Below, in pieces: positions 968-31,013 of a stretch of 32,000 bases of DNA. This DNA is from Xylanibacter ruminicola 23 (GTDB lineage: Bacteria; Bacteroidota; Bacteroidia; Bacteroidales; Bacteroidaceae). The DNA is taken from positions 900,001 to 932,000 of the forward strand of contig NC_014033.1 of assembly GCF_000025925.1 (NCBI RefSeq), given 5' to 3'. The translations under genes were made by a program, and so were the position numbers. Each line of letters starts with the position of its first letter. Positions within the stretch are counted from its first letter, which is position 1. Below the pieces are notes generated by a model. That model did no database searches. It saw only the letters and a program-made list of their open reading frames with translations, and had not been told where the DNA came from.

Positions 968-1054
968 GGAAGGATGGGTGAGTGGCTGAAACCAGCAGTT
1001 TGCTAAACTGCCGTACGGGTTCCCGTACCGGGGGTTCGAATCCCCCTCCTTCCG
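968..1054 (+). tRNA. tRNA-Ser (anticodon GCT), long variable arm
   Basis: Acceptor stem ggaagga/tccttcc. Anticodon stem-loop gcagt-ttGCTaa-actgc. Long variable arm ccgtacgggttcccgtaccgg. T arm ggggg-ttcgaat-ccccc. Confidence 0.9.
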
Positions 1055-1088
1055 CCTCAGGAAGTCTCCACGAGAGCGTGTCGATGTT

Positions 1089-1160
1089 GGTCGATTCATC
1101 TAATGGTTAGGATACAAGATTCTCAATCTTGGCATAGGGGTTCGATTCCCCTATCGACTA
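1089..1160 (+). tRNA. tRNA-Glu (anticodon CTC), copy 1
   Basis: 72-nt cloverleaf folded by hand. Acceptor ggtcgat/atcgact with a G-U at pair 1. Anticodon arm caaga-ttCTCaa-tcttg. T arm agggg-ttcgatt-cccct. Confidence 0.85.
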
Positions 1161-1198
1161 CAACATCTTTGACATTCTGGTCGATAATTTGACATGCT

Positions 1199-1270
1199 GG
1201 TCGATTCATCTAATGGTTAGGATACAAGATTCTCAATCTTGGCATAGGGGTTCGATTCCCCTATCGACTA
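1199..1270 (+). tRNA. tRNA-Glu (anticodon CTC), copy 2, identical to copy 1
   Basis: The 72 nt are identical to 1089-1160, in tandem with a 110-bp period. Confidence 0.85.
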
Positions 1271-1279
1271 CAAAACATG

Positions 1280-2050: not shown

Positions 2051-2959
2051 TTAGTCGTTATAATGTTCAAGCATTTTCTGTATTGCCGCCTTGATTTCTT
2101 CGCGGACATACTGCGGTTCTAAAACTTCCAACTTTTCCCTATGCCATAAAAGCTGCTGATAGAAGTTAAAGCATGGAACAAGCCTGTATTCAAAAATGCT
2201 CCATTCAGGATTGATCTCAACTTCCTTTTGTGATTCGTGGATAGGCAGTGTCCTTACATATTCCACCTGTTGTCCGTAAACCTTTATCCTTATTATCTCA
2301 GGCTTTTGTTCGTCAGAGTGATTGGCTCCGAAACTGCCGTCAAAGTACTCTTCAACACTTATATCGTTAGTAGGGGCCATTTTCTCCTCTGTCAATGTGA
2401 TATTGTCCATTCGCTCCAATGCGAAAATTGAAATGCCATGATGATGATTATCAGGCTCTGCCACCAGATACCAGCGCTGTTCCCATGTGCGTAGGAAGTA
2501 AGGGATAAGTAATTGATGCTTAACCGTTTGTCGGTTAAACGAGTAATACTCGCACTCTATACCTTTATTTTTGTCAATGGCTTCCAGTATTATCTGCACG
2601 TTCTCTACTCCAGTAGGAGCCTCTGTAAGCATAATCTTGTCGCGATGTTTCAGGGCTAGTTCGGTCATACCTTCAATATGATAGGCTGAGAGTAGATAGT
2701 CAAATAGAGAATCGTTTTCACCATAGAATCCTTTGTTGCGATGCAACTCGTTTTTCCCCGTTCTGGTATTATACTCTATATAACAAGGGAAATTTAACTC
2801 AATATAATCCTTATATCTCAGAAATGTTCGAGGTAGAATATCATCACCTTCATATATAGAAGAGTACTGATAACTCTCATTTATCTCCTTCAGAGTCATT
2901 GCACCTTTCCGCTCCAGCAGATTAATCAGGTAGAGGCATTTTCTTATTTTAGGTTGCAT
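2051..2959 (-). CDS. WYL domain-containing transcriptional regulator (BrxR/CapW-like architecture: N-terminal wHTH, central WYL, C-terminal extension)
   Basis: 302 aa. The N-terminal KCLYLINLLERKGAMTLKEINESY is HTH-like. The literal WYL motif sits in ...RTWEQRWYLVAEPDNHH... at aa 163-165. The size is typical of BrxR/CapW-type regulators. Confidence 0.8.
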   Translation of the reverse strand: MQPKIRKCLYLINLLERKGAMTLKEINESYQYSSIYEGDDILPRTFLRYKDYIELNFPCYIEYNTRTGKNELHRNKGFYGENDSLFDYLLSAYHIEGMTELALKHRDKIMLTEAPTGVENVQIILEAIDKNKGIECEYYSFNRQTVKHQLLIPYFLRTWEQRWYLVAEPDNHHHGISIFALERMDNITLTEEKMAPTNDISVEEYFDGSFGANHSDEQKPEIIRIKVYGQQVEYVRTLPIHESQKEVEINPEWSIFEYRLVPCFNFYQQLLWHREKLEVLEPQYVREEIKAAIQKMLEHYND

Positions 2960-2977
2960 AGGCAGTTATTTTTGTGG

Positions 2978-2985
2978 CAAAGATA
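2978..2985 (-). promoter_or_regulatory. -7 box (TATCTTTG on the minus strand) for the WYL regulator gene
   Basis: TAnnTTTG match 18 nt upstream of the ATG at 2959. Confidence 0.5.
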
Positions 2986-3197
2986 GTTATTATTTTTATA
3001 TACACAAAGGATTATGCTCTTCTTTTTCATTATAAACAGTTTTTTTATTTGCATATTGAGTTCTAGTGTGATGTTCCTCCAAAGCTTCATCCAATTTGTT
3101 GTGCTTGACAATTCCTGGGTATATCCAGGTTGAATGAATTGAAGCATGAAGAACTGGCTATTCATCTTAGAAATAGGGAGTGGGTCTTTTTTTATTT

Positions 3198-3371
3198 TCA
3201 TTTTATCTTTCCTTTATCTATAGAAAATTTTGATGCCCAGTCTTCATAACCACATGAAGGACAAGTTGCCTTAAACTGTGATGAGTCGTAAATTATATCA
3301 CCACCATTACACCACACGACAGGACTGCCACATTTGGGACAAATTAAATCAACAACAATAATACTACTCAT
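3198..3371 (-). CDS. 57-aa zinc-ribbon protein (absent from the ORF track, below its length cut-off)
   Basis: My own translation: MSSIIVVDLICPKCGSPVVWCNGGDIIYDSSQFKATCPSCGYEDWASKFSIDKGKIK. It has two CxxC pairs (CPKC, CPSC). It starts 6 nt after the stop of the upstream 167-aa gene. Confidence 0.6.
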   Translation of the reverse strand: MSSIIVVDLICPKCGSPVVWCNGGDIIYDSSQFKATCPSCGYEDWASKFSIDKGKIK

Positions 3372-3377
3372 AGCACT

Positions 3378-3881
3378 TTAATTTTTATTATTCGATTCCT
3401 TACTTTTACTAATACTCTCCATCTCTTCAACAAATTTCCCAATCAGATTATTGGGATCTTCTACCACATGAAGGAATTCATTAAAAAAGTGTGGTATTCT
3501 CTTATAATTAATTCCATCTTTAGTTACTTCCACATAAACTATTCTTCTTCCAGTATCAAATTCGTGGTTTGTTACTAAGGGAACAATTCTTATCTGATAC
3601 TTGGGCCTACAGATAATTCCTAGGTTCAATAAAAGCTCAGCCATTTTATCTATATTGTCCCAGATATCTTTTGGAAATAGAAATATAGAATAACCTTCAG
3701 GAATATCGACATCTTTCCACTCTTCCGAGTCTAGATATTTTTTATAAGAGTTAGAGTATGGAACAATGACGCCAAGTTTAATTAATTCTGGAGGCAATGG
3801 ATCTCTGTGAACAACGACACTGCCCCATAATACTATGGAAGGACAATATTCATTGTATTTTCGAATTAATTCCATTTTCAT
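3378..3881 (-). CDS. hypothetical protein, 167 aa, no recognisable domain
   Basis: Long ORF in an AT-rich region with its own -7 box 27 nt upstream. Acidic/lysine-rich C-terminal tail. No TM segment. Confidence 0.7.
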   Translation of the reverse strand: MKMELIRKYNEYCPSIVLWGSVVVHRDPLPPELIKLGVIVPYSNSYKKYLDSEEWKDVDIPEGYSIFLFPKDIWDNIDKMAELLLNLGIICRPKYQIRIVPLVTNHEFDTGRRIVYVEVTKDGINYKRIPHFFNEFLHVVEDPNNLIGKFVEEMESISKSKESNNKN

Positions 3882-3908
3882 ATTACCTTTGCTTCATGTT
3901 TCTGGCTG

Positions 3909-3916
3909 CAAAGATA
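3909..3916 (-). promoter_or_regulatory. -7 box (TATCTTTG on the minus strand) for the 167-aa / zinc-ribbon unit
   Basis: TAnnTTTG match 27 nt upstream of the ATG at 3881. Confidence 0.5.
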
Positions 3917-3945
3917 AAAAGAGAGGCAGACATTTTGTGTCCGCC
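3914..3945 (-). terminator. intrinsic terminator ending the 559-aa/342-aa operon
   Basis: Minus strand reads ggcggaca-caaaa-tgtctgcc (one G-U pair), followed by tctcttttta. It lies 20 nt after the stop at 3965. Confidence 0.6.
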
Positions 3946-3964
3946 CCCCAAAAACTTATCAGGA

Positions 3965-4993
3965 TTAAATCAGGATGGTATAAAACAATGATGCTAATGA
4001 GATTGCCAATGCGATTATTGAGACGATCTTATAAACTGCCAATTGTTTCTTCATCTTTTCAAAAATAGCATTTTGATTCTCTATAAAGCCATCTGTCTGC
4101 TCTTGAATCTCCGCAGTTTTATGTTCTGCTTCTTTCTGAAATTCTGATAATGCAATTGCTGTTTGCTCTTTAATCTGAGAAACAAATTCCTCTTGTGCCT
4201 TAACTAATTCTTCGGATGATCGTTTTATCTCGGCAAGAGAATCAGTAATGTGTTTCTCTATTCTATCTAGTGATTCATTTTGTTCATTCTTCAATAACGA
4301 AGATGCTTCTTCTTGATTTTTTTTGATATCTGTAATAGTCACAGATAGCTTATCGTTGAGGTCTTTAATATATGAATCATGGGATTTTTCTAATGACTCA
4401 GCTTCATGTATTATTGTCTGAAGTTTATCATTTATTTTTTTTTGAGTATTTTGCCATTCTGACTGCAATAGAGATAGCCCCTCCTCAAGCTGCTGGTACT
4501 CTTTTGCTTCGGCCTCTACATTCTCGGCAAATATATCAATTAATTCAGAAATACTTATTTCACCCTTTTTGATCTTTTCTGTTACATCATTTAACCTTTT
4601 AACAGCTTTTTCACTTGCTCTTTTATCTCTTCGCTGATTAAATGTTATTATTCCCATACATATGATCATGTTTTTAATAATAATCAGAGTATTGGAAAGA
4701 TTATCATTAAGGTGACCAATGACCTTGGATGTATTCTGAAAAGAACTAGTAAAATCTGTATTAATTGATATCAAAGCATCTTTTACCGAATTCGTTGATG
4801 GAGGTGCCCAATTTGCCCCCAAGATGTTGCCAACCTTTTCTATATCAGCCCCTCCATTATAAATCGTATTCTGTAAGGTTGATATACTACTTTTGATGGT
4901 AGAAACATTCTTCTCTAGTCCTGCAAGTTCTTTCTGTAAATCTGCAAGAGACTTTGGGGGTTCTTTCTGATTTGGCAATAATTCTTTATTCAT
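3965..4993 (-). CDS. tail-anchored coiled-coil membrane protein, 342 aa, function unknown
   Basis: The K/E/Q-rich heptad-like sequence across aa 120-315 suggests a long coiled coil. The C-terminal LAVYKIVSIIALAISLASLFYTILI is a terminal TM helix. A second hydrophobic patch, LIIIKNMIICMGIITF, lies at aa 103-118. ATGA overlap with the upstream gene. Confidence 0.8.
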   Translation of the reverse strand: MNKELLPNQKEPPKSLADLQKELAGLEKNVSTIKSSISTLQNTIYNGGADIEKVGNILGANWAPPSTNSVKDALISINTDFTSSFQNTSKVIGHLNDNLSNTLIIIKNMIICMGIITFNQRRDKRASEKAVKRLNDVTEKIKKGEISISELIDIFAENVEAEAKEYQQLEEGLSLLQSEWQNTQKKINDKLQTIIHEAESLEKSHDSYIKDLNDKLSVTITDIKKNQEEASSLLKNEQNESLDRIEKHITDSLAEIKRSSEELVKAQEEFVSQIKEQTAIALSEFQKEAEHKTAEIQEQTDGFIENQNAIFEKMKKQLAVYKIVSIIALAISLASLFYTILI

Positions 4994-6669
4994 TTCTTTA
5001 TACTTTTTCTAAGATTATATAATTTTATTTCGTTTTCACTCTGGATTTTATCGATTTCTTTTAATGTCGAATTCATCTCTTCGTTATGTTCTTTTTCAAT
5101 CTTTTCAATCTCCTGCCGTTCTTTTTGAACTTCTACAAAACTATTTATATAGGAATACATATATTGGTATGTTCCAAATAATGCAACATCAACTTTGGCG
5201 GAAGATACATGCACATAATAATCCGACAATTCTTTTATCTTATCCATATTGGTATTACGTTCAGCTAAAGAGTTTTCTCGCATCTGATTGTTCTTATACT
5301 GAATAAAAAGATAAGTAATGAGTATTCCCGCTAGACCTACAATAATTGAAACCAACACATTTGCCACATCATCAGACATAGAGCCTAAAATGGGTAAATT
5401 CGTTGATAAGAATTTTGAAATGGCTTCAGTTAGGAAAATGCCTATACAAGTTGAAATGCCTGCAAATATTATTTTCCCTGCAGCCTGCATTCTTTCCTCC
5501 ATTGGCTTGGAGTTATCGCATAGTACTTTAACGGCCCTTCCTAAAGAAAGGGTTGCTTCTCTAATTATTATTACTATGCGTTTTACGGTTGTTATAAAAC
5601 TATTAATTATAAATGTAACAATAGTGGAAATGATACCAGATATTCCGCCTTCTAAGGCAGAATTACCGATTTCCTTTATGTGACTTTGAATTTTATAACG
5701 AATATTTTTCAAGCCCTCAATAATATATAAGATAAAGGATCGGAACCCCTCCAATGTCCCTTCTTTATACTTTTTTATTGCATCTTTAATAATCAAAAAA
5801 CTCTCTTCTACCATTATTTTTAATGCACAACCTAAAGCCTGGCGTAAGGCCAACTTAAGTCCAGCTTTCGCTCCTTCTTTACCTAATTCTTGACCATGAT
5901 AGATAATCCTTTCTTTGGTTGTAGGCTCGTGTTCTTTAACGGCTTCATCAGACCTTCTTTGAGCTGCATTAACACGCCGATTGTCCATTCCTCGATCTTC
6001 TTTATTTGTAAGTTCTGGATTTCGGCTACTTTTTTGAGTTTCATAATCGTATTTATCTTTCTCTCCTAATGATTCATTTAAGGAACCATCGACAACGTTT
6101 AAATTTCTTTTATCTGTACCAAACTTATTTCTTTTTTCTTTATTCTGCATCCAACCTCCCTTTTTATGATATTGTTTTGCGGAGAAAAAATGGTCAACAT
6201 GAGGATTTGTCGTTTCTCTGCCTGTTAATTGATCCTTATCCTGTCCATTAACTTTTCTTTCACTTTTTATCTTCTCTCTTTGTCTAGCCGTAAAATCGTA
6301 ATCTTCTCTATTAAATTTTTCACTATCTTTTGCAAAAATATCTTTTTCGGCATTATGCTGGGTTGTCACTGCACCACCATCTTTATCATTAAACATGGCT
6401 CTAGAGAGACCGAAGGGCCCCAAAATACTGTCTATCACAATGTCTTCGCATTCGTTTGCCAAGTTAAAAACTTGCTCATTGGCGTCGACATTCTTGTTTT
6501 TTTGATTTATTGTTTCTAGTTCATCAAGAAGTCTTTGCTCTTCCTGTTCCAGAGAATTATAAATCAAATCCCAATCTGCATTCTCAATTTCTTCAAAATC
6601 CTTATCCGTCATTTCTGCAATTTCAGAAATTACGATGTCATCATTTGCGTAGTTCTTTAAATCATCCAT
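4990..6669 (-). CDS. 559-aa protein: acidic N-terminus, nuclease-like D-H...N...N motif region, 3-4 TM helices, C-terminal coiled coil; function unknown
   Basis: aa 148-205 read LTGRETTNPHVDHFFSAKQYH...KRNLNVVDGSLNESLGEKD, which resembles a cysteine-less HNH/beta-beta-alpha-Me signature. Hydrophobic helices sit at about aa 338-362, 396-420 and 434-456. The C-terminus is rich in E/K. Confidence 0.85.
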   Translation of the reverse strand: MDDLKNYANDDIVISEIAEMTDKDFEEIENADWDLIYNSLEQEEQRLLDELETINQKNKNVDANEQVFNLANECEDIVIDSILGPFGLSRAMFNDKDGGAVTTQHNAEKDIFAKDSEKFNREDYDFTARQREKIKSERKVNGQDKDQLTGRETTNPHVDHFFSAKQYHKKGGWMQNKEKRNKFGTDKRNLNVVDGSLNESLGEKDKYDYETQKSSRNPELTNKEDRGMDNRRVNAAQRRSDEAVKEHEPTTKERIIYHGQELGKEGAKAGLKLALRQALGCALKIMVEESFLIIKDAIKKYKEGTLEGFRSFILYIIEGLKNIRYKIQSHIKEIGNSALEGGISGIISTIVTFIINSFITTVKRIVIIIREATLSLGRAVKVLCDNSKPMEERMQAAGKIIFAGISTCIGIFLTEAISKFLSTNLPILGSMSDDVANVLVSIIVGLAGILITYLFIQYKNNQMRENSLAERNTNMDKIKELSDYYVHVSSAKVDVALFGTYQYMYSYINSFVEVQKERQEIEKIEKEHNEEMNSTLKEIDKIQSENEIKLYNLRKSIKK

Positions 6670-6832
6670 GACCTTATTGTTTTACGTTCCATATGTTTGC
6701 GACAAGAAGTGTCTCTTCCTCCTCCATATATACTTGTTTGTCAAGAGAACAATTTCTTATAACAATACTTATCAGCCTCCATGTAATATGTCAAATGAGC
6801 GTTGCCGCTTCAGCTCTTTTAGATTGTTTGGG

Positions 6833-6840
6833 CAAATATA
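6833..6840 (-). promoter_or_regulatory. candidate -7 box (TATATTTG on the minus strand) for the 559-aa/342-aa operon
   Basis: This is the only TAnnTTTG match between 6670 and 6913 on the minus strand. It implies a leader of about 155 nt. Confidence 0.4.
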
Positions 6841-6913
6841 GGGATTATTTCTGAAACATCCAAGTATTTGTGCTTTTTTTATATCAAAGAGTGAGTTTTC
6901 TATGTTAAACACT

Positions 6914-7141
6914 CTATGAAATCAGAAAGCAAACTCCCAAAGCAAACAGATGTCTGTATCGCCATAGGGCAGGGAGCTCCAAGTAAACTTCTTCCTCAGT
7001 GAGGGAGATTGATATGATGGCACATCCTATCCAGATCAAAGATGTGAAAGTGTATATTCTAGGGACACCAGCAAATACCATAATTGTTACAACAACCATG
7101 TGGAGGTATGGAATACCTTTTGTTACAATATCTAACGTCAT
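6914..7141 (-). CDS. possible small membrane protein (75 aa, two hydrophobic helices)
   Basis: Starts 17 nt after the M48 gene stop on the same strand. The hydrophobic stretches HMVVVTIMVFAGV and LIWIGCAIISISL are present. No homology recognised. Confidence 0.35.
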   Translation of the reverse strand: MTLDIVTKGIPYLHMVVVTIMVFAGVPRIYTFTSLIWIGCAIISISLTEEEVYLELPALWRYRHLFALGVCFLIS

Positions 7142-7157
7142 AATCTTTTTCTTCAGT

Positions 7158-7943
7158 TCAACAATCTATATTTCTTAATTTTCTGTATTGCCAGGAGTTT
7201 TTCCAACGGTCTATCTCCCAGGCACGATATACTTGTTGAGGATGGGAGTTGAATGCGATGCGACAGTTCTGTTGCAAACGATTAAGCCAAGAGGATTCTT
7301 TGAAATGATGATATTCACGAGCCTGCTCAACGAGCTGATAAGGATTCCCGCTAATCTCCTTCAGACCGCATGTTGACTTGAGCATTGTGGTTTGAAAAGC
7401 AAACTCACCTACAACTGCAGCAGCACAACGATCAGCAGAAAGCTCACTCTTACGAGACCAATAATGCATAGCCATCAAAACGGGACCTAATGTGGCATAT
7501 GAGAGGATGTCAAGCCAATAACCCAACTCGCTGATTGTTCTAAGAAGCGTTGAATATAATGTATGATGGCAAAGAATATGTCCGCACTCATGGGCCATAA
7601 CGCATCTAAGTTCATCAAGCTCCATTCTTTCTACGATTGCACTGCTCAAAGCTATGAAGGTGTTATTTTCTCCATATGTAAATGCATTCATATGTGGATC
7701 GTTATAGATGTAGAGTTCTGGTTCAGTAATGCCTACTTTTTCAACTACCTCCTTAAAAGCTATGTATAGAGCCGGATAGTTCGTGGAACTAACTCTGACA
7801 AAGGAACCAAGGCACATACCTCGATATATCCTTTCAAGGCCATGCTCCATACAATAGCTTATAAGCTCATTATATCCCTTTAGGCTCTGTAAGGCTCTTA
7901 TTGCCTTCGCATCTTCGGGATGCATGATATCACGTACTTCCAT
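7158..7943 (-). CDS. M48 family zinc metallopeptidase (soluble type)
   Basis: HEXXH motif in VMAHECGHILCHH, with a downstream SELSADR glutamate motif typical of M48/HtpX-like peptidases. No TM segments. Confidence 0.88.
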   Translation of the reverse strand: MEVRDIMHPEDAKAIRALQSLKGYNELISYCMEHGLERIYRGMCLGSFVRVSSTNYPALYIAFKEVVEKVGITEPELYIYNDPHMNAFTYGENNTFIALSSAIVERMELDELRCVMAHECGHILCHHTLYSTLLRTISELGYWLDILSYATLGPVLMAMHYWSRKSELSADRCAAAVVGEFAFQTTMLKSTCGLKEISGNPYQLVEQAREYHHFKESSWLNRLQQNCRIAFNSHPQQVYRAWEIDRWKNSWQYRKLRNIDC

Positions 7944-7946
7944 AAT

Positions 7947-8693
7947 TTATGCTTCTGATAGTTCAACATGACGATAACGCATACCCGCAATCATTATTAC
8001 TGCAGGAATAACAACACGATAAGCAGGCGAGGCGATGTCGCTGATAGTCCAGCATGCCAACATTCCCCAACCAATAGGGCCAGCTAACATACCAACATAT
8101 CTCTCAAAGGTTATCATACCCATCATAGAGATAGTACGTCCAAAAATCATATTGGCAATACGAGTGATAATGAATGTCATTAATTCCACGAAAAGATATC
8201 TATTGGTACGTAGAGAAATCATCAACGAGAATACGATTTGCTGTCGATTCAGGTTCTTATGTGATATACCTGCTTTGTCAGCAAGATCTCTTAGTTCTTC
8301 ATCAGAGAGTTTCTCTGTAGTTTTCTCGCACAGCGTTGTCAGTAATCGCTGTTCCATCATATTAACGTTATCATTGTAAGCCACACTCACTTTAAGTTTC
8401 TTGCAAACTCTTCTTAAGATGGTCTCATAGCTATCTGCCTCACCTTTCTTATATAATGTATGTACAGTGTTACTACCAAACTTACGAAATTCTTCGCTAA
8501 TCTCCTTTGCCATTAGATTCATTTTTTCAGGGTAGCAGTTTAGGTAGGCATCGGTATTTGATAACTGTTCACTAAATCTCAATTCACCTTGTTTATTATG
8601 TGTGAGTATGTCGCACAATGTACGAAGGTCGTCATTCTGGCACTTTGCCAAGAATAGTAAATCTTTGTCTTCTTTCATAACTATATCCTCCAT
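7947..8693 (-). CDS. YaaW/UPF0174-like protein with a DUF3944-like N-terminus and a hydrophobic C-terminal half
   Basis: The N-terminal DKDLLFLAKCQNDDLRTLCDILT and the C-terminal ...GMLAGPIGWGMLACWTISDIASPAYRVVIPAVIMIAGMRY resemble the E. coli YaaW family (recalled from memory). It ends 3 nt before the M48 gene. Confidence 0.65.
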   Translation of the reverse strand: MEDIVMKEDKDLLFLAKCQNDDLRTLCDILTHNKQGELRFSEQLSNTDAYLNCYPEKMNLMAKEISEEFRKFGSNTVHTLYKKGEADSYETILRRVCKKLKVSVAYNDNVNMMEQRLLTTLCEKTTEKLSDEELRDLADKAGISHKNLNRQQIVFSLMISLRTNRYLFVELMTFIITRIANMIFGRTISMMGMITFERYVGMLAGPIGWGMLACWTISDIASPAYRVVIPAVIMIAGMRYRHVELSEA

Positions 8694-8948: not shown

Positions 8949-9410
8949 ATCTCTAACAAGATTGCTGCTTCTGAATGGGGTGATGGCGTTGTTAAACAAT
9001 TGGCTGATTATATCGAAAGAACTAGCCCAGAAGCTAAAGGATTTTCTGATAAGAACCTTTGGCGAATGAAGCAGTTCTATGAGACATATAATGGCATGGA
9101 CGAAAAACTCTCAGCACTGCTGAGACAAATTAATTGGACAAACAATCTAACTATTTTAAGTCGTACCAAATCAACCGAAGAAAGATACTTTTATTTGAAA
9201 CAATGTATCCAGGAGAGATGGACTAAGCGAGAACAAAATCGTCAGATAGATAGTGCTCTTTATGAAAGATCTAAAGTAGGAACTCCAAAACTCTCACCAC
9301 TGGTGAGAGAAATAGCTCCACAAGCAGAACAGATATTTAGAGACCAATATGTACTGGAGTTTTTTGGTGGAAAAGAGTATAAATATGAGAATGATCTGCC
9401 TGGCTTTATA
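8949..9410 (+). pseudogene. internal fragment of a DUF1016/YhcG-family (PDDEXK nuclease) gene, truncated at both ends
   Basis: The translation ...ISNKIAASEWGDGVVKQLADYIERTSPEAKGFSDKNLWRMKQFYETY...RDQYVLEFFGGKEYKYENDL matches the YhcG N-terminal domain and the first residues of the nuclease domain. There is no start codon (the track start at 9000 is a TTG inside the frame). The catalytic C-terminal half is missing. Confidence 0.7.
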
Positions 9411-9417
9411 ATAAAAT

Positions 9418-9562
9418 CCCCCAGGCTTCGCTTTGAAACCTGAGGGTGATAGGATAGAGCCTGCTGCAGTATGCGTGGCGGGCCGCGCAAGTGCAGGTCC
9501 TTGGCTATCTACATGGCGCCCATGCAACTCGTGGCGCCTAGGGCCGTTACAATCGCAGTAGC
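9418..9562. repeat. direct repeat copy 2 (belongs to the intact smalltalk-type ORF)
   Basis: See copy 1. In this copy the hairpin has one mismatch (cccccagg/cctgaggg). Confidence 0.9.
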
Positions 9563-9613
9563 GATACTTGCTATCATCTGTATGATGAACTTAAATGTTT
9601 CTTTCTTTGTCAT
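9509..9613 (-). CDS. 34-aa smalltalk-type peptide (signal-peptide-like, C-terminal lipobox); absent from the ORF track
   Basis: My own translation: MTKKETFKFIIQMIASIATAIVTALGATSCMGAM. It resembles the Bacteroidales small proteins that NCBI names smalltalk protein (from memory). The peptide of the truncated paralog at 8892-8945 is conserved through synonymous changes only. Confidence 0.6.
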   Translation of the reverse strand: MTKKETFKFIIQMIASIATAIVTALGATSCMGAM

Positions 9614-9729
9614 AATGGTTAAAGGTTTAATAGGTTAATGTTTAATCTTTTAATCGTTTCTTTAGTACGCTTGCCTAAGCAAGAATGTTTCATGTTTCAT
9701 GTAAAGGGTGGGGCCTAAGCCCCAAGCCC

Positions 9730-10287
9730 TTAATCACCAATCGGCTCGTTATGATTTCCGCCGCCACCGGTATTACCACCTTGGTTGCCGCCACCAGTGT
9801 TTCCACCGGTATTGCCTCCGCCATTGCTTGGCTCGTCGGGATCCTCAACCGTACCTGGGTCTGTCGAGGTTACACGCTTAATCTCCTTACCATCGCGGTC
9901 GTAGCAGGTAATCTGGATGGCTGTACCTGCCAGCTCCTCTTTCAGATCCACCGCTGGGGTGAAGATGATTCGACGACTGGTTACCAGTCCGGCTTTCACC
10001 TCATCAACCTTGGCTACACTCTTGGCGCGGATGCCGAATCGCATGGTTCCCAAACCTGGCAGCGCAACCGAGTGACCCTCTGTGGCCCAAGCTTTAATCA
10101 CTTCGCCAGCAGCATCCCAGCAGGCCTGCATAATGCCTTTGCTAACTCCGCTGCGCAGGGCAGCCTCCTTAATCACCTTGTCCTGCGAGAGTGAGGTGTA
10201 CAACTCCGGCATCATGATGTAGCGATAAGTGCCCTCATACTTGCCAATCTTCTGCAACTTTTCCTGTGCTTTAACTTTAAGTGCCAT
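9730..10287 (-). CDS. HU-family DNA-binding protein (Bacteroidales long form) with a Gly/Asn-rich C-terminal tail
   Basis: The segment ...VALPGLGTMRFGIRAKSVAKVDEVKAGLVTSRRIIFTPAVDLKEEL is an HU/IHF-like fold signature. The tail reads SNGGGNTGGNTGGGNQGGNTGGGGNHNEP. Confidence 0.8.
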   Translation of the reverse strand: MALKVKAQEKLQKIGKYEGTYRYIMMPELYTSLSQDKVIKEAALRSGVSKGIMQACWDAAGEVIKAWATEGHSVALPGLGTMRFGIRAKSVAKVDEVKAGLVTSRRIIFTPAVDLKEELAGTAIQITCYDRDGKEIKRVTSTDPGTVEDPDEPSNGGGNTGGNTGGGNQGGNTGGGGNHNEPIGD

Positions 10288-10384
10288 AATTCTAATTTTG
10301 TTTTTGTGTTGTTGTAAATAAAAATGTTTAATGTTTAATCTTTAATGTTTAATGTCTCAACTCCGATGTAGATTTGCGCCCTCG

Positions 10385-10435
10385 TGTGGGAGAATTTCTT
10401 AGTGCACGTGGGAAATAGTTTTGCCGCACGTGGCC
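10385..10435. promoter_or_regulatory. three YGTGGSM boxes at exact 22-bp spacing in the HU gene leader (two contain the CACGTG palindrome)
   Basis: tgtggga at 10385, cgtggga at 10407 and cgtggcc at 10429. Boxes 2 and 3 share gcacgtgg. Confidence 0.35.
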
Positions 10436-10463
10436 GCCATCTGTCTCATTCATTTCAACGGTG

Positions 10464-10471
10464 CAAAGGTA
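10464..10471 (-). promoter_or_regulatory. -7 box (TACCTTTG on the minus strand), candidate promoter of the HU-family gene
   Basis: TAnnTTTG match. It implies a leader of about 170 nt ahead of the ATG at 10287. Confidence 0.4.
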
Positions 10472-10543
10472 CGATATTTTGATTGCGGTCTACGAATAAT
10501 TCTCCAACTTTTTTCATTTTTCTCGAAAAAAAATTTCTGTGCA

Positions 10544-10573
10544 GTCAATAGTCATTAATGTCAATAGTCAATA
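10544..10573 (+). repeat. array of four GTCAWTA heptamers (left arm)
   Basis: gtcaata at 10544, gtcatta at 10551, gtcaata at 10560, gtcaata at 10567. Confidence 0.85.
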
Positions 10574-10599
10574 AGCCTCGAACAACCCTGTATTTTAAA

Positions 10600-10637
10600 T
10601 AAAAGAATATATATAATATATTATATATATTCTTTTA
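10600..10637. repeat. perfect 38-bp A/T-rich palindrome
   Basis: taaaagaatatatataata|tattatatatattctttta. I checked base by base that the right half is the reverse complement of the left half. Confidence 0.9.
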
Positions 10638-10663
10638 ATACTTACCCACATTTCCACTACTCT

Positions 10664-10694
10664 TAATGACTAATGACTAATGACTACTAATGAC
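10664..10694 (-). repeat. array of four TAATGAC heptamers (GTCATTA in inverted orientation; right arm)
   Basis: taatgac at 10664, 10671, 10678 and 10688. The array centre is about 60 bp from the palindrome centre, matching the left arm. Confidence 0.85.
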
Positions 10695-10772
10695 TGAAAT
10701 ATAGCTCGCAGGATATTGAGTTTTTTTCTAAAGAAAAACCCGAAAAAAATTGGATGCTATCCAAAAAAGATG

Positions 10773-10780
10773 TATATTTG
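10773..10780 (+). promoter_or_regulatory. -7 box (TATATTTG) for the kinase-like gene
   Basis: TAnnTTTG match 23 nt upstream of the ATG at 10804. Confidence 0.5.
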
Positions 10781-10803
10781 CAGCGATAAATTTTAAATGA
10801 TAA

Positions 10804-13304: not shown

Positions 13305-13367
13305 CACTCGTAAACCTGAGGCTTCTCGGTGATTCACAAGTGTTAATTTGATTTGTTGATACACATT

Positions 13368-13652
13368 ATGGAAACAAAGATTTTAAAAGTGGTACGCCAG
13401 GGCGAGGCCTTTAGCGTACAGTCATCAAAGAGTGACAACGGTACCATTCAGAAGTGTAACATTGTGCTGCGCGAGATGGGTGGTAGCAAGTTCGAAAACG
13501 AGTATGTGTGCGCCATGCTGGGCAATCTGGCGGCGTGCAGGTTCTACGAAGGTGATGTGGTGGCAGCCACACTTCGTTTCTCTACACATGAGTATCAGGG
13601 GCAGGTGTTCCAAGAAATACTTGCGACCGATATCGTAGTTATTAAACATTAA
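13368..13652 (+). CDS. small OB-fold-like protein (DUF3127-like pattern), 94 aa
   Basis: Trimmed to the ATG (METKILKV...), because the track start at 13353 is a TTG. Length and pattern (N-terminal beta strand, ...GDVVAATLRFSTHEYQGQVFQEILATDI) resemble DUF3127. The call is weak. Confidence 0.5.
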   Translation: METKILKVVRQGEAFSVQSSKSDNGTIQKCNIVLREMGGSKFENEYVCAMLGNLAACRFYEGDVVAATLRFSTHEYQGQVFQEILATDIVVIKH

Positions 13653-13739: not shown

Positions 13740-14129
13740 ATGAAAACAAGAAAAAGCAGAATTTTAGGAGAACAGGTAATGGTTGAAGGTCTGATGACCT
13801 TTGGCAAGTTGGAAACAGGACTGCGCACACTTGATTTTGAGTGCTGCGAGGATGTGGCGGCCGAGGCTTTTAAGGGTAAGTTCGTGGTGCAGGGCATGCG
13901 TGATGGTAACGTGTATATGAGCGAGTTGCCTAAGCGACCAAAGAACAAGCCGCTGTTTCGTGAGGATAACTGCTCGTTGTCGCACGGTCGTAACGGTCGC
14001 TACTATTTTGTATTCTCGCTGGATGATGATGAGGTAGGGCAGTTACCCCAGAAACTAACTGAACAGGCAAACAACATAGCCAGCAAAATGATAAGGAAGA
14101 TACTATTGGAAGGAGGTGAGCTGGGATGA
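13740..14129 (+). CDS. hypothetical protein, 129 aa
   Basis: ATGA stop/start overlap with the downstream primase gene suggests translational coupling. Confidence 0.55.
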   Translation: MKTRKSRILGEQVMVEGLMTFGKLETGLRTLDFECCEDVAAEAFKGKFVVQGMRDGNVYMSELPKRPKNKPLFREDNCSLSHGRNGRYYFVFSLDDDEVGQLPQKLTEQANNIASKMIRKILLEGGELG

Positions 14130-16381
14130 GTTGCCACTTAGTATATTATAAGGATGGGGCGAAGATGATGCGCCCCGTCCTTTCGAGAGAGGAGTATCTG
14201 GCTTTGCGAAATGGTGGCGAGCAGCGGCAACTGGTGCAGCGTATCCGCAATGGCGAGGAGGCACTGAAACACAAGTTGCAGCAGATGAACTACAGCTGTT
14301 TGCCTAACGAAGACGACACCTTGAAGGGTAGCACCCGCATGAGCACCACTGTGGGTATGGATATCGACCACCTATCGGCCGATGAGATGCCAGCTATCCG
14401 CGAGCGCATCCTGAGTAAGAAAGATGAGCTGGGCTTGTTGATGCTCGAAGAGAGTGCCCGTGGCGGTGGCTACCATCTGGTATTTGCACGTAAGTCCGAA
14501 CTGAGCCAGGAAGAGAACCTGAAATGGGCGAGTGAGTTGATATCTGTGGCTTATGATAGTGGGGCTAAGGACATCACCCGCGTGTTCTTTACTACATCGG
14601 GCAATGAACTGATTTACCTGGATGATGCCATCTTCGAACTCGAAGAAGTTTTAGGCACGGATGACACGGCCTTTTTAAAAAAGGACGCGGCTGTTGCGTG
14701 CCAAAATAAATTCAAGGGCATAGCGTATAAGGATATTATTGCGGAGTTTTGGCGGCGAACGGGTGGGGTTCCTAACACAGGCGAACGCAACAAGCGACTG
14801 CACCAACTGGCTGCTAACCTGCGTTCTATTTGCGACGACAGCGAGGAGTGGCTACTGGCGCTGATGCCCAACTTAGGATTACCCGATCACGAGATGCGTT
14901 CGATTATCCATTCGGCCTGCAAGGAACCTACCAAGGGTTCGCGACTGATGGACCAGATAGTGGCAGCCCTCGCCACATCTACCTATGATACCATAGATAC
15001 CGACGACCAGCAATTGTCAATTATCAATTCTCAACTGTCAATTAAGAAGTTGCCTCAGGGTGTTAAGGATTCGGTGGCGGCAGTAGGTCCCGAATTGGCC
15101 ATGCCAATCATTACGGCGGTTTGTCCATGCATAGGTGCGCTGGCCACAGGGGTAAAGCTTGATGTACACGGGCGTGTGCGCGGACTTAATCTGATATCGT
15201 ACATTGTTGGTGAGTTTGCCAGCCGCAAGGGCGATATCGACCCGGTGGTGGATGCCTGGATGAGCGAAGTTTCGGCTATGGACGAGATGTATCAGCAGCA
15301 GGAGGACGAGTATCGACGAAAGAAACGAGCCTCTAAAAACAAGAAGGAACAGCCCGAAGAGCTTAAGTTGCCTGTGCGTTATATCGCCTTGAACAACACG
15401 GTGGCTAACCTGGCCGAGCGCTTGGCAAACGTTGAAGGTAAACATGCATTTTCGTTTACACCCGAGGCTGATACCGTGGCACAGAAATGGCGTTCGGCTA
15501 TGAGCGATTTCTCGGTACTGCTGCGTCAGAGTTACGATGGCAGTAGGTACGATCGTGAGGCCAAGAGTGCCGAGGCGGTGAATGTGCATATTAAGCACCT
15601 GCTGTGGAATGTGGTGATGTGCGGCACACCTGATGCGCTGTACCGTGTAGTAACCAATTATACTGATGGTTTCCAGAGTCGTATAGCCCTGTCGCAAACG
15701 CCCGATAATACCTATGCCAAGCTGGAGGATAAGCCCTATGTACTGACCGACCGACAGACCGAACGCATACAGCAGGTGGCACATCTGTTACCGCTGATGG
15801 CAGGCGAAGTGGTGCTGCAAAAACTGGAAACAAGGGGTAGGGCATGGCTTGAAAAAATACGACTCGAAGCCATGATGAACGACGACCGTGTAAAGGCTCG
15901 TGAACGATTCCGTACCTGTGTTACTGCCCAGCGCATGGTATGCTGCTTGATGCTGTGTAAGGTGTGCGAACAGCTGATACAGAAACACGGACTGAATGGT
16001 GCCGAAACCCAGCTGAAGCAGAAACCCTACTTATGGAAGGAGATGCTGCAGAAAACACAGACGCCGGCTATGCTGGATATGTACGACGTGATAGCCGACC
16101 AGCTGTTGGATAGTGCGTTGTATTATTTTCGCGATCGCATAGAAAATGCCTATCGCAGCAGGGATTATGCTGCCGGTAACAGTAGGAGTCGTCGTTCTAA
16201 GAACGATACCATCTACGAGCGCCTGGATGTGCAGTTCAGTTTCGATCAAGCCATGCAGTTCAGCGTAGCCATCAAGGGTGCCGATGTTACCCGCAACAGC
16301 GTGCAGCAGATGCTGAAAAACTGGCGTAAGCAGGGGCTGGTATCGCTGACCGATGATGGCGGGTATCGCAAGGTGAGTTAG
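14126..16381 (+). CDS. VirE-N/BT4734-like primase domain plus DUF3987-type helicase-like protein (replication protein of a cryptic element)
   Basis: 751 aa. The N-terminal ...STTVGMDIDHL...ESARGGGYHLVFA...ITRVFFTTSG resembles the VirE N-terminal/BT4734 primase-like domain. The size and central region are typical of Bacteroidales DUF3987 proteins. Confidence 0.7.
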   Translation: MSCHLVYYKDGAKMMRPVLSREEYLALRNGGEQRQLVQRIRNGEEALKHKLQQMNYSCLPNEDDTLKGSTRMSTTVGMDIDHLSADEMPAIRERILSKKDELGLLMLEESARGGGYHLVFARKSELSQEENLKWASELISVAYDSGAKDITRVFFTTSGNELIYLDDAIFELEEVLGTDDTAFLKKDAAVACQNKFKGIAYKDIIAEFWRRTGGVPNTGERNKRLHQLAANLRSICDDSEEWLLALMPNLGLPDHEMRSIIHSACKEPTKGSRLMDQIVAALATSTYDTIDTDDQQLSIINSQLSIKKLPQGVKDSVAAVGPELAMPIITAVCPCIGALATGVKLDVHGRVRGLNLISYIVGEFASRKGDIDPVVDAWMSEVSAMDEMYQQQEDEYRRKKRASKNKKEQPEELKLPVRYIALNNTVANLAERLANVEGKHAFSFTPEADTVAQKWRSAMSDFSVLLRQSYDGSRYDREAKSAEAVNVHIKHLLWNVVMCGTPDALYRVVTNYTDGFQSRIALSQTPDNTYAKLEDKPYVLTDRQTERIQQVAHLLPLMAGEVVLQKLETRGRAWLEKIRLEAMMNDDRVKARERFRTCVTAQRMVCCLMLCKVCEQLIQKHGLNGAETQLKQKPYLWKEMLQKTQTPAMLDMYDVIADQLLDSALYYFRDRIENAYRSRDYAAGNSRSRRSKNDTIYERLDVQFSFDQAMQFSVAIKGADVTRNSVQQMLKNWRKQGLVSLTDDGGYRKVS

Positions 16382-16410
16382 TCATTATAGTCAATAGTCA
16401 TTAGTCATTA
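16381..16410 (+). repeat. third array of four GTCAWTA heptamers
   Basis: gtcatta at 16381, gtcaata at 16390, gtcatta at 16397, gtcatta at 16404. The array starts at the last base of the primase stop codon. Confidence 0.85.
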
Positions 16411-16415
16411 AGAAC

Positions 16416-16820
16416 ATGGACATTCAGAATAATCAAGCATGCTTTGTGCAGCTCTGGCGTCAGCTGGAGCGCACAAGGCGCGTGCTTTCAAGCTGCTATA
16501 AGCGATTCAGTGTGCGTAACGTACTAAAGTTGTGGTTTGGTGCTGAAGCTACCGACGACTTTATTTGGCAGGTATGCAAACAAACAGTGGTGAGCGACGA
16601 ACAAGTGTGTGGCAACGATCTGTTGTCATCTCCGAGACACTATCCCCGCATACATCGAGAGTTGCTTAGGGCTATCGTAGCCACCAAATTAGGGTTAGGC
16701 CTACGCCACGTAAAACTACCAGATTTGGATGCTGCGTATAGCATCGCATTTCCAAATAGTACACCAATTAATGTAAACAAAAAGAAAAGAAAGTATGGAA
16801 CCTGTAGTACAGTTGAATAG
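16416..16820 (+). CDS. hypothetical protein, 134 aa
   Basis: ORF between the primase and peptidase genes on the same strand. Basic C-terminus (KKKRKY). No domain recognised. Confidence 0.5.
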   Translation: MDIQNNQACFVQLWRQLERTRRVLSSCYKRFSVRNVLKLWFGAEATDDFIWQVCKQTVVSDEQVCGNDLLSSPRHYPRIHRELLRAIVATKLGLGLRHVKLPDLDAAYSIAFPNSTPINVNKKKRKYGTCSTVE

Positions 16821-30188: not shown

Positions 30189-31001
30189 ATGTTGAAGTTT
30201 ATATCCTTTGGAAGCGGTAGCAGCGGTAATTGCTATTATCTGGGCACAGCGACCGACGGGCTGATTATAGATATTGGTATAGGAATACGCACACTGAAGA
30301 AGTATTGTAGAGAGTATGGTATTCAGCTTAATTCCGTGAAGCGTATCTTGATAACGCACGATCATGCCGACCACATTAAAAGTGTGGGTGCCCTGAGTCA
30401 CGACTGCAACCTGCCTGTTTATGCCACACATAAAGTACACCAGGGCATAGACCAGAATTATTGTGTAACGAAGAAAGTATCGCAAGATCATAAACACGAG
30501 TTGGTAATTGGCGAGCAAGTACAGCTTGGCGACTTTAAGGTGCGCCCTTTTGCTGTGCCTCACGATGCCAGCGAGAATGTGGGCTACGAGCTGGAGGTTG
30601 AAGGTATTGTGTTTGTGGTGCTTACCGATGTGGGTAGCATTACCGACGATATCAAGCAGGCCATTAATCGTGCCAACTACCTGGTGATCGAGGCCAACCA
30701 CGATGTGGAGATGCTGAAGAATGGTCCTTATCCCGCTTATCTGCAGCAGCGCATTCTGAGTGGTAGCGGACACCTGTCGAACGTATCGTGTGGTGAGGCG
30801 CTGGTTGAGAATATGAGCGAGGGCCTGAAGCACGTTTGGCTGTGCCACCTGAGCGAGGAGAACAATCATCCTGAGTTGGCACGTAAGACGGTAGAGACCA
30901 TCCTGCGCAGTCATGGTGTGATTCCTGGCAAGGATGTGGAGCTGGAAGTGCTGAAGCGCAAGACACCAACAGGAGTCTACGAGATTAAAGATAAACATTA
31001 A
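30189..31001 (+). CDS. MBL-fold metallo-hydrolase
   Basis: Trimmed to MLKFISFGSGSSGNCYYLG. The HxHxDH motif is in ITHDHADHI. Confidence 0.85.
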   Translation: MLKFISFGSGSSGNCYYLGTATDGLIIDIGIGIRTLKKYCREYGIQLNSVKRILITHDHADHIKSVGALSHDCNLPVYATHKVHQGIDQNYCVTKKVSQDHKHELVIGEQVQLGDFKVRPFAVPHDASENVGYELEVEGIVFVVLTDVGSITDDIKQAINRANYLVIEANHDVEMLKNGPYPAYLQQRILSGSGHLSNVSCGEALVENMSEGLKHVWLCHLSEENNHPELARKTVETILRSHGVIPGKDVELEVLKRKTPTGVYEIKDKH

Positions 31002-31013
31002 ACATTAACGTTT

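Follow-up and report, generated by a model that had tools for sequence, protein, structure and literature searches.

A conserved dyad of GTCA(A/T) repeats around an A/T-rich palindrome, a candidate replication origin and binding site of the DUF3987 primase-helicase in a Xylanibacter chromosomal island

What might be the function of two mirrored sets of short repeats around a long palindrome, placed between an HU-HIG family gene and the genes leading to a DUF3987 primase-helicase? The question is raised by positions 10544-10694 (hereafter the module) of a window, the whole 32,000-nucleotide stretch of DNA analyzed here, which is apparently part of the chromosome of a bacterium like Xylanibacter (Prevotella) ruminicola. 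A preliminary description of the sequence had proposed that this block is the replication origin or the master operator of a primase element, or else a set of binding sites for the HU-family protein. The present analyses favor the origin, on the basis of a conserved architecture, covariation with a predicted winged helix, and a topology like that of phage P4 and the Staphylococcus aureus pathogenicity islands (SaPIs); replication itself is inferred. The module is very likely the cognate binding site of the 751-aa primase-helicase, and it is probably a functional replication origin of the chromosomal island. The coordinates of all features are collected in Table 1.

The four GTCAWTA words of the left array and the four inverted TAATGAC words of the right array held their coordinates when the sequence was read again. 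The left array consists of GTCAATA, GTCATTA, an intervening AT, and two further GTCAATA units, with spacings of 7, 9, and 7; its palindrome-facing end reads ...GTCAATAAG. In the right array, TAATGAC starts at 10664, 10671, and 10678, and, after an intervening TAC, at 10688. The right array is preceded by CTT, which gives an AAG end towards the palindrome. The palindrome had been described as perfect and A/T-only; its symmetry stands, whereas two of its letters are not A/T (G at 10605 and C at 10632). The two spacers lack mutual symmetry, as had been noted. The innermost GTCA cores of both arrays lie at exactly the same distance, 51.5 bp, from the palindrome centre. Twelve of the 17 GTCAWTA words in the window fall within three arrays (the third is described below), and clusters of at least three such words were found in none of 1000 dinucleotide shuffles. 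The palindrome hairpin has an energy of -11.7 kcal/mol, compared with -3.65 +/- 1.5 for shuffles (z = -5.4), and the GC content falls to 13% within 10580-10639. The arrays and the palindrome are non-random, and chance is excluded. The palindrome is the predicted DNA-unwinding or cruciform centre. The Rfam scan of the window returned three tRNAs only, with no RNA family in the intergenic region, and the DnaA box TTWTNCACA had no match in the window. A T-tract block (AACTTTTTTCnATTTTTTTT, 10507-10533) just left of the left array is kept in most loci (alignment columns ~20-45); it may serve the leftward promoter as an UP-like element, or belong to the unwinding region.

Table 1. Coordinates of the features in the window
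Feature	Position	Strand	Remarks
tRNA-Ser and two tRNA-Glu genes	968-1271		
WYL-domain protein	2051-2959		
PDC-M40B-like	4990-6669		E 5e-57
M48 peptidase	7158-7943		
JukA-like DUF3944	7947-8693		E 5e-47
Truncated DUF1016_N open reading frame (ORF)	9000-9443		
'smalltalk' ORF, 34 aa	9509-9613	-	NF033879, E 2.5e-14; downstream of HU-HIG gene; too short for ORF list
HU-HIG family gene	9730-10287	-	divergent neighbour; linked by position, no covariation with iterons
Promoter-like -7 box TACCTTTG	10464-10471	-	for HU-HIG gene; 73 bp left of module
Left iteron array	10544-10573	+	4 x GTCAWTA; GTCA cores at 10544, 10551, 10560, 10567
Left spacer	10574-10599		26 bp; without symmetry to right spacer
Palindrome	10600-10637		perfect 19+19 (38 bp); 36/38 A/T; local GC minimum
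Right spacer	10638-10663		26 bp
Right iteron array	10664-10694	-	4 x TAATGAC (minus strand GTCATTA)
Promoter-like -7 box TATATTTG	10773-10780	+	for rightward cargo/primase genes; 79 bp right of module
751-aa primase-helicase gene, predicted initiator	14126-16381	+	start 3.4 kb downstream of module
Predicted winged-helix domain	16199-16378	+	residues ~692-751
Third iteron array	16381-16410	+	GTCATTA-TA-GTCAATA-GTCATTA-GTCATTA; same orientation as left array

Related loci were collected by a scan of species-representative genomes. This yielded 80 loci from rumen Prevotella and other Bacteroidales, mostly metagenome-assembled genomes (MAGs). The nearest related locus is that of X. ruminicola Ga6B6, whose primase is 94% identical. 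The preliminary description had pointed to related elements as a place where heptamer arrays might recur beside DUF3987 primase genes, and the same dyad does recur there: it is present in every locus of this primase type whose contig is long enough upstream, 13 loci including the window. All have the order of four cores, a spacer of 25-30 bp, an A/T-rich palindrome of 28-52 bp, a second spacer of 25-30 bp, and four inverted cores. The distance from the inner GTCA to the inner TGAC is 104-119 bp, the outer span is 140-167 bp, and the palindrome centre is usually a few bp, at most 8 bp, off the midpoint. In the alignment of the 13 loci, the GTCA columns on the left and the TGAC columns on the right are invariant. 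The spacing pattern is often mirror-image on the two sides (e.g. 9,7,9 and 9,7,9), and two loci (L002 and L036) have a fifth symmetric GTCA core per side. Palindromes that differ in sequence, with arms of 14-26 bp, occupy the same position in more than 20 loci (examples are TAAAAGAATATATATAATA|..., CACTATAGTAATAATAATAAATATAT|..., and CATTTAGTAATAAATATATAA|...). The long central palindrome appears to be kept by compensating changes, and this feature appears new. The module lies 2.0-9.3 kb from the primase start, a distance that varies because the cargo differs.

A further array, overlooked in the preliminary description, was found at the far end of the primase gene (third array, Table 1). The array overlaps the stop codon of the primase gene, and 5 nt separate its end from the ATG of the ORF at 16416-16820. 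An array of four GTCA(A/T) cores, 6-10 bp apart, is located 3' of the primase gene in most homologues that keep the C-terminal 212 aa of the window protein. These arrays usually end in ...GTCATTAAG or ...GTCAAAATCGA, right before the next gene. Three loci (L008, L030, and L041) have no third array or have a degenerate arm.

Which protein of the island might read these repeats? As judged by tblastn synteny, the arrays of four GTCAW are confined to loci whose primase keeps the same C-terminal 212 aa. They are absent where the HU protein (96% or 91% identical), smalltalk, u99, u129, u134, or the M15 peptidase is shared but the primase C-terminus differs. The u99, u129, and u134 proteins, the HU protein, and the M15 peptidase are common across primase types and show no covariation with the repeats. 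In two loci, L043 and L053, the HU protein is 96% and 91% identical to that of the window, respectively, and the HU promoter region aligns up to ~10497, where a different module begins. That module has the same design, consisting of ATACAGTGTGACAGTTAAAA, an AT palindrome, and TTTTAACTGTCACACTGTAT; the primases of these loci diverge from that of the window after residue 515. Because of these two loci, and because the shared proteins do not covary, the repeats are tied to the C-terminus of the primase-helicase rather than to HU. Among other primase types the layout recurs, but the repeats around the AT palindrome are different ones, namely ACAGTGTGACAGT, GCGTGACAA x3, GTGACAGT x3, GCGTTGCAG x3, GCGTTACAG x3, and TGGTTACA x3-4. 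Where the tail of these primases is readable, the winged-helix recognition motif differs too. Different types may also occur together: the MAG SIG140 has two islands with different iteron and winged-helix types (L033 with GTCAW and L043 with ACAGTGTGACAGT), and RUI360 has two primase islands (L027 and L037) that differ in the C-terminal winged helix. The presence of two island types in one genome fits orthogonal initiator/origin pairs.

The primase-helicase contains, in order, an N-terminal AEP-like primase region, a DUF3987 P-loop helicase-like domain (residues 331-554), a helical linker, and a predicted C-terminal winged helix. The alignment consensus of the N-terminal region includes the AEP-type motifs GMDIDH and GYHLVF, and there is a weak BT4734-like_N match (E 0.12). 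The phmmer search of the primase against PDB sequences gave no meaningful match. AlphaFold2 models were made for residues 521-751 and 680-751. These C-terminal models end in the topology H-b-H-H-b-b, and the predicted local distance difference test score (pLDDT) is 84.7 for residues 680-751. When the query was the 231-residue C-terminal model, the helical linker diluted the fold search (E >= 0.1); a model of 72 residues was then used. The top Foldseek matches of the 72-residue model in the PDB were all winged helices, with TM 0.6-0.7, a root-mean-square deviation of ~2 A, and E 0.01-0.09; they include IclR, Fur/Zur, DpnI, MecI, and MCM/ORC. The primase C-terminus is predicted to form a winged helix. 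Its recognition helix (the third helix, RNSVQQMLKNWRKQ) is encoded at 16292-16333, with the Gln727 codon at 16304-16306. For primase-DUF3987-winged helix architectures, a role of the winged helix in origin recognition has already been predicted (PMC5862659).

The recognition helix is near-invariant among the GTCAW-type primases, save for its fifth residue (X in N-S-V-X-QMLKNW). This residue varies together with the base that precedes GTCA (base -1). With Gln, base -1 is A in 51 of 56 repeats (7/7 loci); with Arg, it is G in 74 repeats, T in 31, and A in none (22 loci). The base is mostly T in the remaining cases: 21 of 24 repeats with His (3 loci), 10 of 12 with Lys (GT-GTCA, 1 locus), and 3 of 3 with Tyr (CT-GTCA, 1 locus). 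The association is valid both for the adjacent third array and for the upstream arrays, which variable cargo separates from the gene by kilobases. When a neighbour-joining tree was built from the helicase and linker parts, loci with Gln fell at ~5-6 separate places. Tree sisters can differ in this residue, such as L016 (Gln) and L012 (Arg), L021 (Gln) and L023 (Lys), and the window and L026 (His). Gln-adenine and Arg-guanine are textbook readout pairs. The residue-base covariation, which is correlative, is the strongest evidence here that the winged helix might contact the repeats directly.

A mechanism may be proposed along these lines. The C-terminal winged helix would read the pentanucleotide core GTCA(A/T) together with the base 5' of GTCA, and Gln727 may contact the A in AGTCATTA DNA. 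Four sites per side, 7-10 bp apart and in opposite orientation, would allow each array to nucleate one helicase oligomer. Both assemblies would face the palindrome (38 bp, 95% A/T), which would melt or extrude. Melting might be aided by negative supercoiling between the divergent promoters, and perhaps by the HU-family protein acting architecturally. The primase (AEP) domain would then prime. The third array may be an auxiliary site for the same protein, either crr-like or autoregulatory. In this scheme the binding, the loading of two oligomers, the melting, and the replication are inferred from the conserved architecture and the covariation.

Several known replication systems resemble this arrangement. 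In SaPIs, the C-terminal winged helix of Rep/Pri-Rep binds penta-/hexanucleotide iterons, half on each side of an AT-rich centre and in opposite directions, and two hexamers are thought to load there (PMC9371898). Allelic initiator/iteron specificities exist in SaPIs and in phage-inducible chromosomal islands (PICIs) (PMC9371898; PMC6092414). The module likewise has two opposite sets of short iterons flanking an AT-rich centre, as in SaPIbov1, SaPI1, SaPI5, and the E. coli PICIs. In both cases the initiator is a helicase with a C-terminal winged helix (predicted here), which is primase-fused in SaPI5, and the iterons are specific to the cognate initiator variant; the window-type arrays follow the primase C-terminus. 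Unlike the SaPI/PICI origin immediately 3' of rep, the dyad of the window is 3.4 kb upstream, with a one-sided half-set downstream, and its centre is a long perfect palindrome, not just AT-rich DNA. The island also differs in its DUF3987 helicase, its AEP-like primase, and its Bacteroidota host; the scanned ORFs gave neither an integrase nor any hint of induction by phage or of packaging.

The topology of the window is shared with phage P4. The P4 record NC_001609 annotates ori at 9086-9809, alpha at 4636-6969 (minus strand), and crr at 4291-4590; thus ori is upstream of alpha, beyond five small genes, crr is immediately 3' of it, and the two have short repeats in common, in both orientations. 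The P4 alpha protein also combines primase, helicase, and C-terminal origin-binding domain in one polypeptide, the last being predicted for the window protein. Sequence similarity between the window primase-helicase and P4 alpha was not detected, either in the PDB or in the phage collection that contains the P4 record. P4 differs in having 8-bp repeats, an ori without a long central palindrome, and integrase, cos, and capsid-size genes, and its primase is not known to be of the AEP type. The superfamily 3 (SF3) origins, such as those of SV40/polyomavirus large T, papillomavirus E1, and adeno-associated virus Rep (the Rep-binding element), contain four closely packed sites of 4-6 bp, arranged as a dyad or in tandem, which are recognized by the origin-binding domain of a hexameric helicase. 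These sites lie beside easily melted or palindromic DNA, and the head-to-head double-hexamer logic may be likened to that of the window. The DNA-binding folds are unrelated, however, and in SV40 the pentamers are central with the AT tract and palindrome lateral, whereas in the window the iterons are lateral and the palindrome is central. Iteron plasmids (pSC101, RK2, R6K, and P1) also have initiator-site repeats adjoining an AT-rich unwinding element. Their repeats are direct, 17-22 bp long, and about one helical turn apart; these origins also have DnaA boxes, and a Rep encoded as a separate protein brings in host DnaB. The sites of the window, by contrast, are 7-10 bp apart and form inverted sets. 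A classical iteron-plasmid origin was rejected, considering the misfit of spacing and orientation and the lack of a DnaA box. A centromere (parC-like) was also rejected: partition ATPases had no match among the scanned ORFs, and it is a helicase that covaries with the repeats.

The arrays might instead be operators only, through which the primase winged helix or another element protein regulates the divergent promoters and the post-primase gene. This reading is unlikely, though it has points in its favor. The module lies between two divergent promoter-like boxes, which point outwards and both fit the Bacteroidetes -7 consensus TAnnTTTG; these promoters are consensus matches only. The TAnnTTTG box was used in place of a sigma-70-type promoter scan, which is uninformative for Bacteroidota. 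The distance from the leftward box to the module is rather constant (62-76 bp in 13/22 loci), the third array lies directly before the ATG of the next gene, and replication initiators often autoregulate via their iterons. However, the arrays overlap neither the -7 boxes nor the expected -33 positions; the rightward distance ranges from 44 to 288 bp across the loci. A role as operators also leaves unexplained the centred 28-52 bp A/T palindrome, whose symmetry is kept while its sequence changes, and the protein predicted to be bound is a helicase-primase. The idea of a master operator is thus weakened by the promoter distances, and autoregulation by the primase may still be part of the function. 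Binding by the adjacent HU-HIG protein, the other proposal of the preliminary description, is highly improbable. Its gene adjoins the module in every locus whose sequence extends far enough left, and HU-family proteins bind distorted or cruciform DNA. Nevertheless, L043 and L053 keep the HU gene and its promoter region, while their arms are completely different. HU-HIG proteins have also been argued to be unlikely as sequence-specific factors (PMC5499826). A non-specific architectural role of the HU-HIG protein at the palindrome is possible, and would be compatible with an origin.

Alternatively, a 5.7-kb segment that moves or inverts could have the right and third arrays as its terminal inverted repeats, or these arrays could be sites at which cassettes of the variable cargo are exchanged. 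The two arrays are mutually inverted and have the same end (TCTTAATGAC / GTCATTAAGA), the cargo between module and primase spans 2.0-9.3 kb, and the homology between loci with iterons of the same flavour stops right after the array. Still, such recombination ends are very unlikely: no recombinase or transposase was found in the segment, and no inverted or empty-site variants were seen among the 80 loci. Moreover, this model has no need of the unit formed by the left and right arrays and the centred palindrome, and the repeats covary with the winged helix of a helicase. As for chance, or functionless microsatellites produced by slippage, these genomes abound in period-7 arrays of many units, and exact (TAATGAC)3 occurs in 15 unrelated viral contigs of IMG/VR. 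The probability of this explanation is nonetheless negligible, given the absence of any cluster from the shuffles. The core, the 4+4 copy number, the dyad geometry, and the position are all kept across primases that are ~50-94% identical, and the variable spacing is unlike slippage. The 15 IMG/VR contigs were rejected as unrelated microsatellites, none of which encodes a homologue of any island protein.

Several observations weigh against a replication origin read by the primase-helicase. The island is chromosomal, and no integrase, excisionase, or packaging (terminase) gene was found among the window ORFs scanned. No primase homologue was found on plasmids in the plasmid collection, and the sole match in the phage collection (tblastn of the primase) is an unverified 4-kb faecal scaffold. 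The main module is 2-9 kb upstream of the gene, compared with immediately downstream in SaPIs. The third array is absent in some loci of the same type (L008 and L030), and also in the other primase types examined (L043 and L053), in which the start of the next gene coincides with the stop codon of the primase. The winged-helix matches are statistically weak by their E values, and the origin-binding domain of P4 was not among the top 50 fold matches. The residue-base covariation could partly arise from linkage of the winged helix and the arrays in one inherited module. Finally, unrelated heptamer arrays are common in these loci, so that 7-bp periodicity alone is not diagnostic of iterons.

These heptamer arrays form an observation of their own. 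The window and the 80 loci show a strong excess of tandem arrays with a period of 7 bp, whose units are of many kinds: among arrays of at least 3.5 copies, 161 have period 7, compared with 18, 40, and 8 for periods 6, 8, and 9, respectively. Examples are at 10323-10359, 9613-9659, and 30984-31008 of the window, 1300-1340 of L043, and 5160-5195 of L053, and many lie within 60 bp upstream of start codons. An ATTAAAC-like array is located immediately before the 'smalltalk' ATG. The unit of the array in the HU 5' leader varies between otherwise ~90% identical loci (AATGTTT, TTTTTAC, and AATTCTC). A leader/translation feature and slippage hypervariability are both possibilities. Within the primase coding sequence, a CAATTAT-like 7-bp-period array of 4.9 copies (...QQLSIINSQLSIKK..., 15011-15044) sits in the stretch that joins the primase domain to the helicase domain, for most of which the alignment has no defined consensus; since its period is not a multiple of three, it could be frameshift-prone. 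The HU 5' leader also contains GCACGTGG twice, 22 bp apart (10404-10433); the first copy is retained in L043 and L053, and the second is similar there. Many contigs stop within the HU gene or its leader, 200-750 bp to the left of the module (L001, L002, L015, L016, L020, L023, L030, L036, L041, L045, L050, L054, and L074), which suggests that these genomes contain the HU module as a repeat in multiple copies.

On the right side of the module, the island encodes a Kinase-PolyVal protein, a protein whose match to HIRAN is below threshold, three small uncharacterised ORFs, and the 751-aa DUF3987 protein, followed by a 134-aa ORF and an M15 endolysin-like peptidase. None of the NCBIfam, PHROGs, and PADLOC collections offered a name for the primase, kinase, HIRAN protein, or small ORFs. 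One 99-aa ORF upstream of the primase (13353-13652, plus strand) has a sub-threshold DUF3127 match (E 0.012). It is 80-92% conserved, even beside a different primase type, and may act as a conserved module accessory. A defence-type gene set occupies 2051-8693, left of the HU gene (Table 1). In the phage and plasmid collections, blastn found nothing that matched 10288-10803, and IMG/VR contained no close relatives of the primase. The faecal scaffold mentioned above (L097, MT839699.1) is a 4086-bp sequence from a human faecal virome, labelled 'Bacteriophage sp.', with a primase 54% identical to that of the window. A 4 x GGTCA(T/A) array follows its primase gene (3360-3430, GGTCATTAAGGTCAAGGTCATTAAGGTCATTAAG). 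The scaffold has no terminal repeat of 11-200 bp, and thus no sign of circularity. The primase and array in a human faecal sample indicate that the family is also present in the human gut.

In summary, an iteron/AT-rich origin that is read by the winged helix of a self-loading primase-helicase belongs to a known kind. Its occurrence in the HU/DUF3987 islands of Bacteroidales, the split layout (an upstream dyad and a half-set 3' of the gene), and the residue-to-base covariation appear to be new. In the literature, no paper was found that gives a function or a cis element for these islands. DUF3987/VirE-type primase genes beside HU-family, 'smalltalk', and cell-wall hydrolase genes recur many times in Prevotella and Bacteroides genomes. 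As a speculative proposal, such islands might be active replicons without their own integrase. The origin might fire in situ, or after excision by a helper, upon a trigger such as phage infection, and so amplify the cargo (polyvalent-type kinase and HIRAN protein) together with the neighbouring defence genes. This would be a new satellite-like or 'onion-skin amplification' class, in which orthogonal pairs let the islands coexist. Replicating vectors for Prevotella are scarce, and the module may serve as a small origin/initiator cassette in Prevotella genetics. If the module is an origin that the primase winged helix recognizes, the pairing of Gln727 with A and of Arg with G would predict that single substitutions re-target the protein, and the 150-bp signature could be used for finding and typing these islands in gut and rumen metagenomes. 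The islands would then be recognisable as replicons, a candidate Bacteroidota counterpart of the PICIs or the P4-like satellites.

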